From an uncultured Clostridia bacterium (GTDB lineage: Bacteria; Bacillota; Clostridia; TANB77; CAG-508): a stretch of DNA of 64,000 nt. The stretch covers positions 10,156 through 74,155 of the forward strand of contig CAJFLB010000011.1 in the NCBI GenBank assembly GCA_904387305.1, read 5' to 3'. The notes under the pieces are model-generated. The model searched no databases. It was not told where the DNA came from and saw only the letters and a program-made list of their open reading frames with translations. The position numbers and the translations under genes are program-made. This document shows, piece by piece, positions 2,477-60,755 of this stretch (within the stretch, counting starts at the first letter, position 1; each line of letters starts with the position of its first letter).

Positions 2477-3244
2477 ATGAAAACCATATTAGAGATAAAA
2501 AATATTTGTAAAACCTATCAAAGTAAAGAAGGGGAAATTTTAGCGCTAGATAATATTTGTTTTAGAGTAAAAGAAGGAGAATTTGTATCTATTATAGGCC
2601 CTAGTGGTTGCGGAAAATCCACTCTACTATCTATCATTAGTGGGTTAGAAGAAAAAACAAAAGGAGAAATCTACATAGATAATAAAAAAGTAGAAGGCAT
2701 TTCAGAAGAAGTAGGATATATGTTACAAAAAGATTGTTTATTAGAATGGAGAAATATATGGAGTAATAGCATATTAGGACTAGAGCTAAAAGGGAAATTA
2801 GATGAAACAAGCAAAAAATATGTAGAAAATTTATTAAAAAAATATAATCTTTATGATTTTAAAGATAAATATCCATCTGAGCTATCTGGAGGAATGAGAC
2901 AAAGAGCAGCTTTAATTAGAACTTTAGCAACAAAACCAAAAATTTTGCTACTAGATGAAGCATTTTCAGCACTAGATTATCAAACAAGAATCATGGTAAC
3001 AAATGATATTTATTCTATATTAAGAAAAGAAAATATGACAGCAATTATTGTAACACATGACATTTCAGAAGCGATTAGTATGTCTGATAGAGTTGTGGTA
3101 TTAACCAAAAGACCAGGGAAAGTAAAAGATATTTATACAATTGATTTTGAGATTGAAAATAGGAATCCCATCAATGTAAGAGAAAGTCCTAAATTTAGTG
3201 GATATTTTAATACTCTATGGAAGGAGTTGGGAGTTGATGAATAA
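2477..3244 (+). CDS. ABC transporter ATP-binding protein (NitT/TauT, sulfonate/nitrate/HMP type)
   Basis: Walker A GPSGCGKST, signature LSGGMRQRA, Walker B ILLLDEAFSALD, H-loop VTHD. Confidence 0.9.
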   Translation: MKTILEIKNICKTYQSKEGEILALDNICFRVKEGEFVSIIGPSGCGKSTLLSIISGLEEKTKGEIYIDNKKVEGISEEVGYMLQKDCLLEWRNIWSNSILGLELKGKLDETSKKYVENLLKKYNLYDFKDKYPSELSGGMRQRAALIRTLATKPKILLLDEAFSALDYQTRIMVTNDIYSILRKENMTAIIVTHDISEAISMSDRVVVLTKRPGKVKDIYTIDFEIENRNPINVRESPKFSGYFNTLWKELGVDE

Positions 3245-4043
3245 TTCGTTATCACAGGAAAGAAAACAATATATCAAACATAATCGAAAAAGAAAAATAC
3301 TGGTATTTACAACACAGGTAGCAATACTAATTGGATTTTTGGCGATATGGGAAATATTAGCAGATATGAATGTGATAGATAGTTTTATCATGAGTCAGCC
3401 AAGTAGAATATGGGAAACACTAACTAACTTAGGTTCAAATGATTTGTTAATGCATATTAAAGTAACTGTATATGAGACAGTTGTTGGATTTTTGATAGGA
3501 ACCATTTTAGGAACAATCATTGCCATTATATTATGGTGGTCTAGATTTCTTTCAGATGTGTTAGAACCTTATTTAGTCGTATTAAATAGTCTACCGAAAG
3601 TTGCTTTAGGACCAGTGATTATCATTTGGGTAGGAGCAGGAACACCAGCCATTATTGTGATGGCAGTTGCGATTTCATTAGTTGTTACCATATTAGAAAA
3701 TTTAAATGGATTTATAAAAACAGATAAAGATTTAATTAAAATGGCAAAAACATTTAAAGCTACAAAATTACAAATATTAACGAAAATTGTTATACCAGCC
3801 AATATTTCTACTTTTATTAATTCTTTAAAAGTCAGTATAGGACTTTCTTTAGTAGGTGTCATCTCTGGAGAATTCTTAGTATCTAAAGCAGGTTTAGGAT
3901 ATTTGATTGTGTATGGTGGGCAAGTATTTAAATTAGATTTGGTTATGGCAAGTGTGATTATACTTGGTGTTGTAGCAGGATTAATGTATTTAGCTGTATT
4001 ATTGCTAGAAAAAATCATATTGAAATCTAAAAAATTTCAATAA
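3237..4043 (+). CDS. ABC transporter permease (NitT/TauT family, BPD_transp_1)
   Basis: Multi-TM protein whose ATG at 3237 overlaps the ATPase stop (ATGA coupling). Typical SsuC/TauC-like LPKVALGPVIIIWVG and EAA-like region. Confidence 0.85.
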   Translation: MNNSLSQERKQYIKHNRKRKILVFTTQVAILIGFLAIWEILADMNVIDSFIMSQPSRIWETLTNLGSNDLLMHIKVTVYETVVGFLIGTILGTIIAIILWWSRFLSDVLEPYLVVLNSLPKVALGPVIIIWVGAGTPAIIVMAVAISLVVTILENLNGFIKTDKDLIKMAKTFKATKLQILTKIVIPANISTFINSLKVSIGLSLVGVISGEFLVSKAGLGYLIVYGGQVFKLDLVMASVIILGVVAGLMYLAVLLLEKIILKSKKFQ

Positions 4044-33223: not shown

Positions 33224-33344
33224 AATATAAATCCTCCATTCATGCAATATTTAAAATTGCTTAATATTTATTTTTAATTATATATAAATTTATCTCTAAC
33301 TTATCAAAGAAAGAGATTGTTGGAATTAAAGGTATGCAAATAAA

Positions 33345-33495
33345 ACCTATATGTATTGACCTTTGTTACAGTATTGCTACTGCTCTTTAATCAATACTTA
33401 TGACCATAAGTGAAAGCCATCAGAGCATCCGCCGAATCTTTCGATAACTCTGAACCTCGTCAACACCCTCAAAAGAGTGTCCAGGCGCTATATAT
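33345..33495 (-). promoter_or_regulatory. glmS ribozyme (GlcN6P-dependent self-cleaving leader)
   Basis: The minus strand reads AUAUAUAGCGCCUGGACACUCUUUUGAGGGUGUUGACGAGGUUCAGAGUUAUCGAAAGAUUCGGCGGAUGCUCUGAUGG. This contains the conserved AGCGCC, GACGAGG, AUCGAA and UUCGGCGGAUGC blocks, directly upstream of glmS. Confidence 0.85.
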
Positions 33496-33626
33496 GAACG
33501 AAATATTGCCCTCCTTTCAAAATATTTTCTTGCATACTTTTAATTTACTGTTATTATATTACACTAAAATGGAAAAATAAGCAAGTCCTGGTTAAAAAAT
33601 TTTATTTTTCCAAAAAAGTATCAAAC

Positions 33627-58320: not shown

Positions 58321-58349
58321 TTGACAACTAAATAAAAATAGTTTATACT
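58321..58349 (+). promoter_or_regulatory. sigma-A promoter for the tRNA pair
   Basis: TTGACA (58321-26), 17-nt spacer, TATACT (58344-49). Confidence 0.55.
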
Positions 58350-58370: not shown

Positions 58371-58447
58371 GCTCCCTTAGCTCAGTTGGTCAGAGCAACC
58401 GGCTCATAACCGGTGGGTCCAAGGTTCGAATCCTTGAGGGAGCACCA
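58371..58447 (+). tRNA. tRNA with a CAU anticodon (elongator type; acceptor stem resembles lysidine-modified tRNA-Ile2, otherwise tRNA-Met)
   Basis: Cloverleaf: acceptor GCUCCCU/AGGGAGC, D stem GCUC/GAGC, anticodon stem ACCGG/CCGGU with loop CUCAUAA, T stem CAAGG/CCUUG, encoded CCA. It lacks initiator features. C4 and C5 match Ile2-like acceptor stems. Confidence 0.85.
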
Positions 58448-58457
58448 TTATACATAT

Positions 58458-58772
58458 GGGTAGGTGGCCGAGTGGCTAAAGGCGGCAGACTGTGGTCTTT
58501 GGTTAATCAAAACCTAAACTTGCAGCTCATATAAGTGATTATATGATGAACACCGGGCTAATTCGGGGAACTCTTAACAGTTAGGCTGATGACAATCCCG
58601 AGCTAGGAAAGAAATTTCCGAGTGTAGAGACTTTATACCTGGTATCTTGAAAAAGATAAAGAGAAAGTCCAGACTACAAACATAATATATTTGGTTATGG
58701 TAGTGAAAACTATAGTAGTAAGAAATCTGTTCTCATTTGAGTACGAAGGTTCGAATCCTTCCCTGCCCACCA
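58458..58772 (+). tRNA. tRNA-Tyr(GUA) interrupted by a group I intron in the anticodon loop (exons 58458..58493 and 58723..58772)
   Basis: Joined exons give acceptor GGGUAGG/CCUGCCC, a long D loop AGUGGCUAAA, anticodon stem GCAGA/UCUGU with loop CU-GUA-AA, a long variable arm (CUCA-UU-UGAG), T arm GAAGG-UUCGAAU-CCUUC, discriminator A and CCA. Confidence 0.8.
58494..58722 (+). mobile_element. group I intron (229 nt, ORF-less), inserted between U35 and A36 of tRNA-Tyr
   Basis: The 5' exon ends in U and the intron ends in G. Core elements: P UAAUUCGGGGAAC (58559-71), Q AAUCCCGAGC (58594-603), R GUCCAGACUACAA (58667-79), S AACUAUAGUAGUAAG (58708-22). P4 pairs CGGG/CCCG; P7 pairs ACUAC/GUAGU. Confidence 0.75.
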
Positions 58773-58773
58773 T

Positions 58774-58803
58774 AAAATACAAGGAAACTTGTATTTTATT
58801 TTT
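58774..58803 (+). terminator. rho-independent terminator after the tRNA pair
   Basis: aaaatacaag-gaaa-cttgtatttt plus a T-run. Confidence 0.75.
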
Positions 58804-58846
58804 ATATAAAAAACAAACAAATGTTTTAAAAGAAAGGAAAGAGCCT

Positions 58847-59230
58847 ATGAATTTTGATACTAATAAAGAAAAAGGAAATTCGGGTTTAGGAATGGCAATA
58901 GCATATTTTACAACAAAAGGATATACGGTATCAATACCATTAAATGATACACAGGATTATGACTTAGTAATCGAAAAATGTAATAAATTATATACAGTGC
59001 AAGTAAAAGCAACAGGATGTAAAACAAAATATAATGTATATCAAGTAGCTTTAAAAAGCTGTGGCGGAACAAAAGGAAAGGAATATAAAACAGTAGTAAA
59101 CACAAATGTAGATTATATATTTATATTAGATGCTGAGCAAAAAATGTATTTAATTCCAAGGATAGAAATTGTAAATAAAAGTACAATTAATTTGGGGAAA
59201 AGAATGGAAACATATAGAGTGAATATTTAA
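58847..59230 (+). CDS. PD-(D/E)XK endonuclease (group I intron-associated, I-Ssp6803I-like family), free-standing
   Basis: MNFDTNKEKGNSGLGMAIAYFTTKGYTVSIPLNDTQDYDLVIEKCNKLYTVQVKATG carries D ... D/E-x-K spacing (DYDLVIE ... VQVK). ATG at 58847 after RBS AAAGGAAAGAG. The upstream part of track ORF 58691.. overlaps the tRNA exon and is spurious. Confidence 0.55.
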   Translation: MNFDTNKEKGNSGLGMAIAYFTTKGYTVSIPLNDTQDYDLVIEKCNKLYTVQVKATGCKTKYNVYQVALKSCGGTKGKEYKTVVNTNVDYIFILDAEQKMYLIPRIEIVNKSTINLGKRMETYRVNI

Positions 59231-59288
59231 AATATGGGAAGTAATTAATTATGAAGACATCTTTGATGAATTTGGCAAAAAATATGAC

Positions 59289-59708
59289 TTATAGCATATG
59301 CCATAAGTCATCAAAATCGTTCTTATCAATAATCTTCAAATCAAATGCTAATTGAATTTGATCTCTTCTTTTTTCATCATCATTGATATTTTGTAAGTAA
59401 TTTAATACCGCTTCTTTTCCACCTATATTAGAATAAATTTCTTGCATTTCTTCATTAGAGAATTTTCTTTTTTCATTAGTATGTCTATCTACCATAGTAA
59501 AACTTTTAGATAATTCATTATACATTGCAAGTTTAATCATTCGGTCATTTTCATTTTCTACTTCGCTTGTAAGAATTTTTACTGCTTGTTCCAAGTTTTC
59601 TACTTGCATAGGAGTTCTATATGTTTTATAAGCCATAAAAACACCAAATGAAACAGCCACTATTATAAGTATGATTAAAATAATTATTAGAATTTTAGTT
59701 TTGTTCAT
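59289..59708 (-). CDS. membrane-anchored hypothetical protein (139 aa)
   Basis: N-terminal TM ILIIILIILIIVAVSFGVFMA. Last gene of a three-gene minus-strand operon. Confidence 0.5.
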   Translation of the reverse strand: MNKTKILIIILIILIIVAVSFGVFMAYKTYRTPMQVENLEQAVKILTSEVENENDRMIKLAMYNELSKSFTMVDRHTNEKRKFSNEEMQEIYSNIGGKEAVLNYLQNINDDEKRRDQIQLAFDLKIIDKNDFDDLWHML

Positions 59709-60006
59709 TTTTATTTTCTCCTTTCATATTTTCTAATTTTTCATTTAACTTTTTTATCATATATTTATCATATTTATGAACTATAATTGCTATCAATAGG
59801 AAAAATATTGTATATACTCCGACATACCAAGGAAGAAAATAAAACAAATTATGAGGAATCATTTGTAATTCTAACAAAGGTATAATAGTATTATCTGTTA
59901 AAAGTGAAAACAATGTTATATGGATAATATAAGAAATTATTGTAAATAGTATTAAACCCACTATATAATAAATACTCAAGTTAAAAATTAATTTTCTTTT
60001 CTTCAT
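59695..60006 (-). CDS. small polytopic membrane protein (DUF3021-like partner of the LytTR protein)
   Basis: Two or three TM helices. Overlaps the downstream gene and abuts the LytTR gene. Confidence 0.45.
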   Translation of the reverse strand: MKKRKLIFNLSIYYIVGLILFTIISYIIHITLFSLLTDNTIIPLLELQMIPHNLFYFLPWYVGVYTIFFLLIAIIVHKYDKYMIKKLNEKLENMKGENKNEQN

Positions 60007-60008
60007 AA

Positions 60009-60473
60009 TTATATCATCCTTTCTTCTAAAATTTTCATAATTTGTCTAGTCCTTCTTCTTGAAACAACTTCTTCTGTTGAATCATCCAACTTGACAATTA
60101 TTCTTCCAACTTCACTTATATCAAATTTATCTATATGTTTGATATTTACAATGCAGCTTTTTGATATTCTTATAAAATTATTATCCATATTCTCTAACTC
60201 ATATAATTTACTTTTTATCTTATATGTTTCATTTTTAGTCCTACAATAATTAGACTTTTTATCACTATAAAATGCAACAATATCTATATATTTTATTTCT
60301 ATTAAATTATAATTTTTATCTGTTACTATTACTTTATCATGATTGAATTCATAATTGTTTAAGTATTCAATAAAATCGTATAAATCTTGATTATTATTTG
60401 AAAACTGTATTTCTATTATGACTTTGTCATTTTCTAAACTATTATTTATTTTTTTTACAATCTCAAATTTCAT
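60009..60473 (-). CDS. LytTR-family DNA-binding protein (no receiver domain)
   Basis: IKYIDIVAFYSDKKSNYCRT ... FIRISKSCIVNIKHIDKFD is a LytTR domain. Confidence 0.75.
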   Translation of the reverse strand: MKFEIVKKINNSLENDKVIIEIQFSNNNQDLYDFIEYLNNYEFNHDKVIVTDKNYNLIEIKYIDIVAFYSDKKSNYCRTKNETYKIKSKLYELENMDNNFIRISKSCIVNIKHIDKFDISEVGRIIVKLDDSTEEVVSRRRTRQIMKILEERMI

Positions 60474-60755
60474 AATTGTATATGTTACACAGTTTTAAAG
60501 CTGTAACAATATACCTCCTTTCATTATTTTTATCCATACTTTATTTCTGAAAAGATTATAAAACATACATTTTTAATTGACAATATTTATACTATAAGAG
60601 GCTTAATAAAATGATAAACGGCTTAAATAGAGTAAAAGTTTCAAACTAACAAAAAATAGAAACAAATGGAAACCAAAAACAGTAAAGAATTATTGAAATA
60701 AAAAAGAGTATATGATACCATTAACTTAAAGTAATCATAAAAGGAGTAAAAGGGT

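Follow-up and report, generated by a model that had tools for sequence, protein, structure and literature searches.

The subject of this analysis is a gene of 127 codons in a 64,000-nt stretch of DNA from an uncultured Clostridia bacterium (assembly GCA_904387305.1, contig CAJFLB010000011.1, positions 10,156-74,155 of the forward strand). The whole stretch is called the window and its own numbering is used throughout. The gene is located at 58847-59230, just downstream of a tRNA-Tyr gene which is itself interrupted by a group I intron without an open reading frame (ORF). Our comparisons make it moderately probable that this gene is a free-standing, selfish, homing-type endonuclease cassette of tRNA loci, with the intron as a separable neighbour. 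We favour this reading because of the protein family and its conserved signature, the purifying selection, the cassette-like presence/absence and decay of the gene, its mosaicism and its near-exclusive association with tRNA genes, and also because relatives were found inserted in tRNA anticodon loops. An earlier sequence-only reading of the same DNA had already recognised a free-standing gene beside an intron in tRNA-Tyr that has no ORF, and this arrangement, with the intron of group I, was borne out by ARAGORN, by Rfam and by covariation in 54 introns.

Architecture of the locus

The features of the locus are as follows (position, strand, description and, where given, basis).

58321-58349 (+): sigma-70-like promoter of the tRNA-Met/tRNA-Tyr operon (TTGACA-17-TATACT); 11 of 12 matches
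58371-58447 (+): tRNA-Met(CAT), also found before tRNA-Tyr in phage locus L091 and the majority of the related loci
58458-58493 (+): 5' exon of tRNA-Tyr(GTA), ending at U35 in the anticodon loop (..GACTGT); ARAGORN
58494-58722 (+): ORF-less group I intron, 229 nt; Rfam Intron_gpI, covariation, ARAGORN
58723-58772 (+): 3' exon of tRNA-Tyr (AAATCTG...CCCACCA); ARAGORN and metagenome search
58774-58803 (+): AT-rich terminator-like hairpin (AAAATACAAG-GAAA-CTTGTATTTT, stem 58774-58797), then A and a run of five T
58834-58842 (+): Shine-Dalgarno-like AAGGAAAGA; sequence
58847-59230 (+): 127-aa PD-(D/E)XK endonuclease gene of the PDDEXK_5/I-Ssp6803I family, free-standing tRNA-linked subfamily; profile, fold, alignment
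59231-60632 (-): variable segment directly 3' of the ORF, with genes for proteins of 139 aa, 103 aa (membrane) and 154 aa (LytTR domain)

The ORF is intact from the ATG at 58847 to the TAA at 59230 (127 codons). It starts 125 nt past the end of the intron and 74 nt past the end of tRNA-Tyr, beyond the terminator-like hairpin; it therefore does not have the arrangement of an intron-encoded homing endonuclease, whose gene is located inside its own intron. The sequence-only reading had placed the gene 75 nt past the tRNA with a ribosome-binding site (RBS) of its own. The distance is thus corrected by one nucleotide, and an RBS-like AGGAAAG was indeed observed 6-12 nt upstream of the ATG, at a position where relatives read AAAGGAG or GGAGG. 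Upstream of the ORF, nothing else on the + strand resembles a promoter apart from the near-consensus one at 58321-58349. The hairpin was found to accompany the ORF even where other sequence has replaced the upstream tRNA, and its stem shows compensatory changes across species; the automatic terminator scan misses it, as the stem (58774-58797) has just two G-C pairs. The sequence of the 3' exon (58723-58772) is shared unchanged by 51 metagenome contigs, whether or not these carry the intron and the ORF.

Family, fold and conserved signature of the protein

The protein matches PDDEXK_5 (PF11645) over residues 6-115 (E = 2.4e-16, 60.5 bits, cutoff 26.1), and this domain is present in all homologues among the at least 120 listed. 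The small PD-(D/E)XK protein of 127 aa described in the sequence-only reading was therefore upheld, as the ORF is intact and the peptides quoted there are present. No match was obtained in NCBIfam for the 127-aa protein. PHROGs assigns it to phrog_5018, of 'unknown function' (89 bits), while the NCBI label of one close homologue is 'group I intron-associated PD-(D/E)XK endonuclease'. The family comprises 1,194 clusters at 50% identity (E up to 1e-3).

In a search of the Protein Data Bank (PDB) with the single sequence, the I-Ssp6803I structure 2OST was reached at merely E = 0.39; a profile made from 29 relatives retrieved I-Ssp6803I alone, at E = 1.9e-4. AlphaFold with a shallow alignment (29 sequences, at least 67% identity) gave an unusable model with a predicted local distance difference test score (pLDDT) of 56, and the model made from 77 diverse relatives has a pLDDT of 95.9. 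The top Foldseek matches of the latter are chains A-D of 2OST (E = 2e-8 to 1.6e-7, template modelling (TM) score 0.80/0.70, root-mean-square deviation 2.7 A, 26% identity); MepB, the SPARDA nuclease domain, Hjc and EcoRV come far behind, the next at E = 1.5e-3. The predicted fold is that of I-Ssp6803I, with its alpha-beta-beta-beta-alpha-beta restriction-endonuclease-like core. Membership of the I-Ssp6803I family, as proposed earlier, is thus in agreement with both the PF11645 hidden Markov model search and the fold comparison.

The conserved signature consists of P31, D34, D39 and Q52-V-K54. Across the 77 relatives, which share 32-63% identity with the query, neither P31 nor D39 varies and K54 is conserved to at least 90%, while Q52 is invariant among 29 close relatives. 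As P31, D39 and Q52-V-K54 are aligned with the 2OST segments PLGD..YDL and VQVK, P..D..Q-x-K is a putative catalytic signature by this alignment.

The gene for I-Ssp6803I (PDB 2OST) resides in the group I intron that interrupts tRNA-fMet of Synechocystis, and the enzyme is a tetramer with a long pseudo-palindromic target (PMC3384342). The window protein resembles it in the PF11645 domain, in having it as the sole significant PDB match by profile and fold, in the aligned P..D..Q-x-K, in being small and single-domain, and in being tied to a tRNA gene with an anticodon-loop group I intron. It differs in sequence (26% identity), in length (127 aa versus 151 aa) and in belonging to a distinct subfamily; its gene is located outside the intron, past the tRNA and the terminator, and the tRNA is Tyr and not fMet.

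Some relatives of 220-290 aa (P0124, P0125, P0129, P0132, P0135, P0149, P0212, P0224, P0247 and P0270) were observed to carry a C-terminal extension after the nuclease domain, and the same holds for the 231-aa ORF of phage locus L091. Helix-turn-helix or zinc-ribbon matches to these extensions are sub-threshold at most. The extension may represent an additional module for DNA binding, of the kind known from modular homing endonucleases.

The intron in tRNA-Tyr

With introns allowed, ARAGORN places tRNA-Tyr(GTA) at 58458-58772; 229 nt of this stretch (58494-58722) form an insert that follows U35 (ACTGT-intron-AAATC). The Rfam family Intron_gpI (RF00028) matches the insert with 36.1 bits, which is below the gathering score of 50 (E = 8e-8 in a local 361-nt scan), and the P, Q, R and S elements are aligned in this match; Rfam scans of a 2.5-kb stretch and of the whole window did not report the intron. 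Since the Rfam match stays below the gathering score, we used covariation in 54 non-identical homologous introns as the basis for the assignment.

P1 is formed by the exon CUGU plus G, paired with the internal guide UUGCAG and containing a U-G wobble, and the last base of the intron is G. The exon CUGU and the guide UUGCAG are retained in the alignment, and 53 of the 54 introns share both the splice-site U and the terminal G, the outlier being L029 (L numbers denote loci and contigs). RNAalifold recovers P1, P2, P3, P4, P5, P6, P8 and P9, with compensatory changes on both sides at 27 of the 59 predicted pairs. No ORF of at least 40 aa was found on the + strand of the intron. Judged by this covariation, together with the P/Q/R/S core, the P1 pairing and the terminal G, 58494-58722 is a genuine, ORF-less and structurally constrained group I intron.

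Bacterial relatives

Scanning one bacterial genome per GTDB species gave 129 relatives, and the best 80 were studied, all of which come from uncultured gut Clostridia or Bacillota assemblies. At about 57 of these 80 loci the ORF is located 57-120 nt after a tRNA-Tyr whose intron, inserted at the same position, measures 201-247 nt. In five species (L016, L025, L028, L068 and L085) the tRNA-Tyr beside the ORF was found to be uninterrupted. An intact ORF of 127 aa stands beside it in L016, L028 and L068, and the tRNA-Tyr of L028 is 100% identical to the spliced tRNA of the window. These intron-less cases are interspersed among intron-bearing relatives (L066, L072, L029, L013 and L041), and therefore the intron was repeatedly lost or gained.

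Intact copies of the ORF are present in 73 of the 80 species. The ratio of nonsynonymous to synonymous substitution rates (dN/dS) is 0.08-0.1 in close pairs, with a median of 0.24, and by these ratios the gene is under purifying selection. When the ORFs next to an intron-less tRNA-Tyr were compared with their nearest intron-bearing relatives, dN/dS was found to be 0.10-0.21 (dS 0.55-1.1), against a median of 0.14 for intron-bearing pairs; relaxed selection on these ORFs was considered and overall dN/dS shows none. At 52 near-invariant positions, a mean of 1.8 changes was observed beside an intron-less tRNA-Tyr (n=5) versus 0.54 otherwise (Mann-Whitney p = 0.008). Examples are G10R in L028, and T35I together with a C-terminal truncation in L025.

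Synteny is retained upstream (24 loci) and is lost right after the 3' end of the ORF, with unconserved genes downstream. Two groups of loci depart from the common layout. In about a dozen, the ORF has the same hairpin and is preceded by unrelated sequence that ends in CACCA, and in four 1-10 kb separates the tRNA from the ORF. A search with Rfam of 12 loci without tRNA-Tyr before the ORF gave nothing. Both groups are interpreted as insertions of islands at the tRNA 3' end. That the ORF itself is cargo of such an island was rejected, as it stays beyond the island in L010, L054, L071 and L180. A second copy of the tRNA 3' end was not found elsewhere in the window.

The tRNA-Tyr 3' end is a hotspot for integration, and at least three types of island begin there directly after the CCA; one 4.8-kb island block is 94-97% identical across different hosts. 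The island ends beside the ORF carry conserved short hairpins followed by (C)ACCA, similar to tRNA acceptor minihelices, which match no Rfam family. Such sites were observed in L009 (600-712) and L010 (660-710, 1005-1140, 1476-1515 and 2882-2932); further hotspot loci are L015, L021, L042, L051, L052, L055, L056, L064 and L083, and L167-L217 downstream of the tRNA. On the other side of the ORF, the genes at 59231-60632 of the window are missing from the closest relatives (L007, L009 and L010), in which a homologue of window 60633 onwards adjoins the ORF. Elsewhere in the window, a glmS ribozyme/riboswitch is present at 33343-33500 on the - strand (87.6 bits, gathering score 37).

Presence, absence and mosaicism of the cassette

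A metagenome search anchored on the exact 50-nt 3' exon retrieved 51 contigs, among which all four combinations of intron and ORF were seen. No contig with the native hairpin lacks the intron; in about 13 of these contigs the ORF is intact. L198 and L182/L191 differ by a 422-nt block directly after the terminator that contains only the RBS and the ORF; it is absent in the latter two, its junctions are clean and the flanks are 99% and 90% identical. In a comparison of L202 with L171, L173, L186 and L196 (98-99% identical), a 261-nt internal deletion of the ORF between 12-nt repeats was found in four contigs, with the fifth intact. L178 retains only a remnant of the ORF. Relative to L184, the cassette is replaced in L192 and L209 by a different gene of 260 aa; this ORF occupies 57-975 nt after tRNA-Tyr and by eye resembles DinD/Bro-type mobile-element proteins.

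The gene thus shows what is expected of a free-standing homing gene, that is, a discrete cassette which is present or absent between near-identical genomes amid conserved genes, and the presence/absence, deletion and replacement alleles agree with the discrete mobile or decaying cassette of the sequence-only reading. A further indication comes from L031 and L035. Their flanking proteins are 95% and 88% identical in amino acids to those of the window and their intron differs at few positions, while their ORF is just 68% identical. DNA identity was observed to drop from about 90% to about 60% along the ORF, which therefore points to a recombination breakpoint inside the gene.

The intron-less contigs of this tRNA-anchored sample were found to be without the ORF, except L180, in which it lies 9.8 kb away past an island. 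Co-occurrence of intron and ORF gave 11/15 versus 1/16 for intact ORFs (Fisher p = 0.014) and 20/6 versus 1/16 with remnants included (Fisher p = 5e-6), both uncorrected for phylogeny; a control for relatedness through upstream genes was not workable as the flanks are unshared, so that the Fisher tests ignore kinship. The intron is retained in at least nine native loci in which the ORF is deleted, absent or replaced.

Phage relatives

IMG/VR gave 172 relatives and the best 80 of these were examined. All but one (79 of 80) are located within tRNA arrays of large phages, on the strand of the tRNAs. When a tRNA is present within 150 nt downstream of the ORF, it is mostly tRNA-Ser (22) or tRNA-Tyr (18), with other isotypes at most two each; within 150 nt upstream, tRNA-Tyr is the commonest isotype (6). 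The stop codon of the ORF is often 0-10 nt before the start of the tRNA, and the ORF clades track the isotype of the neighbouring tRNA. About 24 phage relatives adjoin an uninterrupted tRNA-Tyr, and the gene order in L091 is that of the window (tRNA-Met, tRNA-Tyr, ORF). The same placement was observed in the cultured phages SelmaRatti (T5-like), Vibrio phage Chester and Bacillus phage BCP78, where the gene is annotated as 'hypothetical protein'. In the phage arrays some introns of more than 150 nt called by ARAGORN are artefacts, and only cases checked by eye were kept.

A search with the core of the window intron (GTGTAGAGACTTTA..AAGTCCAGAC) found 91 group I introns in viral contigs of IMG/VR (L221-L311), 67 of them inside tRNA genes. 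Arg(TCT) accounts for 24 of these, Leu(TAA) for 14 and Asn(GTT) for 9; Tyr, Ser, tRNA(UUA) and further types also occur. PDDEXK_5-encoding introns, about 590-630 nt long, were found in tRNA-Asn(GUU), in tRNA(UUA) and in one other tRNA, and those in tRNA-Asn are inserted after the exon CUGU, as is the tRNA-Tyr intron of the window. ORF-less group I introns are present in five phage tRNA-Tyr genes, at the site between U35 and A36, with 72-78% identity to the window intron; near these five no PDDEXK_5 gene was found. The locations are as follows.

L236 7294-7987, L305 and L307 1672-2354: PDDEXK_5-encoding introns in tRNA-Asn
L244 4807-5482 and L280: PDDEXK_5-encoding introns in tRNA(UUA)
L255 11962-12663: PDDEXK_5-encoding intron in one other tRNA
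L231 about 3245-3495, L242 about 1565-1835, L245 about 765-1040, L281 about 2940-3210 and L233: ORF-less introns in tRNA-Tyr
L090 2841-3432, L141/L144/L145/L146 about 2938-3465, L131 about 2931-3432 and L165 about 2933-3448: tRNA genes split by a PDDEXK_5 ORF

The sharing of the U35/A36 site and the sequence similarity point to phage-host exchange of the tRNA-Tyr intron. The intron-encoded phage proteins reach 105 bits to PF11645 and E = 1.3e-8 to I-Ssp6803I, and they are much nearer to both than is the window protein. The latter is 41-59% identical to the free-standing relatives of tRNA arrays and 28-40% identical to the intron-encoded subfamily. In view of this grouping, the suggestion in the sequence-only reading that the endonuclease had moved out of the intron is not supported. 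The reading had also suggested that the combination of gene and intron would explain the mobility and maintenance of the intron; the gene is not needed for the maintenance, because the intron persists without it in bacteria, where it is deleted, absent or replaced, and in phage tRNA-Tyr.

In phage loci L090, L141, L131 and L165, a tRNA gene is interrupted, within or next to its anticodon loop, by the PDDEXK_5 ORF alone. These split genes have perfect acceptor stems and T arms, their inserts of 406-507 nt leave no space for a ribozyme, and no match to Intron_gpI was obtained in them. In L090 an insert consisting of a tRNA-Tyr and the ORF breaks up a tRNA-Tyr within CTGTA of the anticodon loop, the second tRNA-Tyr being complete, and the stop codon of the ORF is located within CTGTAAATC of the tRNA 3' half. 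As judged from these sequences, the split tRNAs would be either dead genes invaded by the endonuclease gene or genes whose inserts are excised at the RNA level by some route.

L250 (730-1296) and L310 (7784-8452) contain a tRNA(UUA) gene with an ORF-less intron of 188-190 nt, and an apparently N-terminally truncated PDDEXK_5 ORF is located just upstream. The same tRNA(UUA) gene holds the ORF-containing intron in L244 and L280, which suggests, as far as the sequences tell, that within a single lineage the gene has entered or left the intron. tRNA(UUA) would read UAA and these tRNAs may be suppressors. The calls of L253 and L310 as tRNA-Tyr were rejected, as they are really tRNA(UUA), and an intron in a tRNA-Glu of L157/L158 was rejected as it is contradicted by the Rfam tRNA at 3377-3468.

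Phage tRNA-Tyr introns of 581-584 nt that encode HNH proteins were also observed (L248 5960-6618, L277 1085-1746 and L311 7787-8448), and ARAGORN places them between positions 38 and 39 (TGTAA-intron-AATCA). From the HNH and PDDEXK_5 cases we therefore count two different nuclease families in tRNA-Tyr introns. In addition, a ROOL RNA (350 bits) is present at 5319-5947 of L160, in a phage tRNA array with a PDDEXK_5 gene, and weak twister-P1-like matches were found in L154 (953-1023) and L160 (25-95).

Comparison with known systems

The protein family and the concept are already known. Phages provide two collaborative or trans homing pairs, namely the free-standing F-CphI with the ORF-less psbA intron in cyanophage S-PM2, and MobE with the defunct I-TevIII nrdB intron in T4 (PMC3984707; PMC2790892, PMC6083498). 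The outcome proposed for these pairs is co-conversion of both elements (PMC3984707), as is proposed here for the window. Unlike those pairs, the window locus is in a bacterial chromosome and a tRNA gene, and its enzyme is of the PD-(D/E)XK type and not Endo VII-like or HNH. Furthermore, both intron-less carriers of the ORF and ORF-less carriers of the intron are common, and the identity of the cut site with the intron site is hypothetical here.

The placement of the phage relatives in tRNA arrays is similar to that of SegB of T4/T6, a free-standing GIY-YIG nuclease which adjoins tRNA-Tyr in T6 and cuts within tRNA genes (PMC13096335). SegB drives preferential inheritance or amplification of the tRNA region and is often tRNA-associated across phages (PMC13096335). 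Recent work has shown that SegB, when located beside tRNA-Tyr, drives the escape from defences that cleave tRNA-Tyr. The window gene differs from it in encoding an unrelated nuclease fold and in being chromosomal, in a bacterium, and it is known here from sequence alone. Another known group is PHROG 5018, whose 'hypothetical proteins' (T5-like phages, Thalassavirus and Tsarbombavirus) are direct homologues with 32-45% identity in the same kind of position. In a paper on Jug jumbo phages, 80 stand-alone PDDEXK_5 genes are counted as homing endonucleases (PMC12880540). In the parts of these sources that were available, none of the PHROG 5018 or Jug members is characterised and none is reported beside an intron-bearing chromosomal tRNA-Tyr.

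The literature searched gave no cleavage data for free-standing PDDEXK_5 members, no description of a group I intron in bacterial tRNA-Tyr and none of a free-standing PDDEXK_5 gene paired with a tRNA intron. In those sections of it that were available, the tRNA-array placement of the PDDEXK_5 family was likewise not described. A 2014 review places all phage introns then known in protein-coding genes and none in tRNA (PMC3984707).

Proposed mechanism and alternative explanations

If the gene is a selfish homing cassette, the ORF would be without a promoter of its own and its product would be made at a low level through read-through of the tRNA-operon terminator. The enzyme would introduce a site-specific double-strand break in or near the tRNA-Tyr of cassette-less genomes, as the family and the insertion sites of relatives suggest. 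Recombinational repair from a cassette-bearing copy would then copy in the cassette together with flanking DNA, and the co-copied flank could include the group I intron about 125-350 bp away. The intron would be a second, separable selfish element in the same gene, and it may interrupt the site of the enzyme and so shield its carrier. On the sequence data, nuclease and intron do not appear to be obligately coupled.

Several observations weigh against a selfish cassette. The scan found no promoter-like site between the terminator-like hairpin and the ORF, and it is because of this that expression is probably by read-through. At most loci, with the exception of L031/L035, the ORF diverges roughly in step with its flanks, and a single chromosomal position across a family-level clade would also be expected of a vertically inherited ordinary gene. 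No unambiguous gain of the ORF was identified and every case of presence/absence could be a loss. Finally, if the target is in tRNA-Tyr, the avoidance of self-cutting is unexplained for the five intron-less bacterial species and for the approximately 24 phages.

The alternative that we consider possible, although rather unlikely, is obligate collaborative homing, in which the enzyme cuts at the intron insertion site and the intron is an immunity determinant that depends on the enzyme in trans. The arrangement fits it formally: a free-standing gene of a homing endonuclease family adjoins an ORF-less, functional-looking intron in a highly conserved gene, ORFs of the sister subfamily are located within phage tRNA introns (including those of tRNA-Asn after the same CUGU), and the insert of tRNA-Tyr and ORF interrupts the tRNA-Tyr of L090 at CTGTA in the anticodon loop. 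The co-occurrence of intron and ORF (p = 0.014 and p = 5e-6, with phylogeny uncorrected) and the excess of changes at near-invariant sites in ORFs with an intron-less tRNA-Tyr (p = 0.008, n=5) are in its favour as well. However, intact ORFs stand beside an uninterrupted tRNA-Tyr in L016, L028 and L068, in L028 with a tRNA identical to the spliced one of the window, and their group has dN/dS values (0.10-0.21) equal to those of intron-bearing pairs (median 0.14). About 24 phage relatives adjoin an intron-less tRNA-Tyr, the intron survives deletion, absence or replacement of the ORF in at least nine native loci, and homologous ORF-less introns at U35/A36 occur in phage tRNA-Tyr with no PDDEXK_5 gene nearby. 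Collaborative homing as put forward in the sequence-only reading, if taken as an obligate coupling with the intron, thus stays plausible but is weakened by the intron-less carriers and the ORF-less introns. In the same manner, the survey of homologues that it called for revealed a strong tRNA association, which extends to the intron-encoded phage subfamily, but no obligate tie to the intron.

A further idea, which we hold to be improbable, is that nuclease and intron together constitute a self/non-self module, with the intron in the role that methylation has in restriction-modification. If this were true, the enzyme would cut uninterrupted tRNA-Tyr anticodon-loop DNA, for example in phage arrays or rival strains, the chromosomal tRNA-Tyr would be protected since the ribozyme splits the site, and loss of the intron while the nuclease is active would be harmful. 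Because of that harm, the module would explain the long retention of the ORF-less intron, and it would also explain the unusual substitutions in nucleases beside an intron-less tRNA-Tyr. PDDEXK_5 would then be a general class of tRNA-gene-targeting nucleases which shape phage arrays, including the tRNAs split by ORFs.

Slightly more improbable still is a domesticated nuclease that benefits the host and is not selfish, either restriction-like against foreign uninterrupted tRNA-Tyr, with the intron as shield of the chromosome, or acting in recombination and repair. Long-term retention at one locus under purifying selection in many species would agree with it, as would the tRNA-Tyr genes carried by phages of these habitats, a weak PADLOC match (labelled homing endonuclease) and the excess of changes at invariant sites in ORFs without an intron partner. 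Against it, the gene is frequently lost, deleted or replaced among near-identical strains, partner defence genes were not found and the downstream neighbourhood is unconserved, the closest homologues are carried by phages themselves, and intron-less carriers exist.

We give very little credence to a passive relic, that is, currently inactive cargo of a phage or island integrated at the 3' end of tRNA-Tyr. Several types of island do insert directly after tRNA-Tyr, the nearest relatives are phage genes (L091 with the same gene order) and truncated and deleted copies occur; however, purifying selection was observed over 73 intact copies, the ORF stays on the chromosomal side when islands separate it from the tRNA (L010, L054, L071 and L180), and the tRNA 3' end is not repeated elsewhere in the window. 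The least credible explanation is an action of the protein on pre-tRNA and not on DNA (as a tRNA endonuclease, processing factor or intron splicing helper): the family is tightly co-oriented with tRNA genes, at times overlapping them, and the ORF-split phage tRNAs, if functional, would need removal of the insert at the RNA level, but the sole characterised member is a DNA homing endonuclease whose structure was solved with DNA, the DNase-type P..D..QxK signature is invariant, the intron has all self-splicing ribozyme elements and is found without the protein, and the Pfam search of the protein found no RNA-binding domain.

Implications

Under the favoured reading of a selfish tRNA-locus cassette, and if the enzyme is active, the window would present a case, in a bacterial chromosome, of a free-standing PD-(D/E)XK homing endonuclease together with an ORF-less tRNA intron. 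This is a stage in the proposed birth of mobile introns that has so far been documented only for phage protein-coding genes and with other nuclease families. The survey shows one family in three states, namely free-standing by an intron-less tRNA, free-standing by an intron-bearing tRNA, and inside tRNA introns. In addition, the comparison suggests homing nuclease as a likely function for the widespread phage proteins of PHROG 5018 which are located immediately upstream of tRNA-Tyr and tRNA-Ser. This assignment is topical because SegB, next to tRNA-Tyr, drives the escape of phages from defences that cleave tRNA-Tyr.

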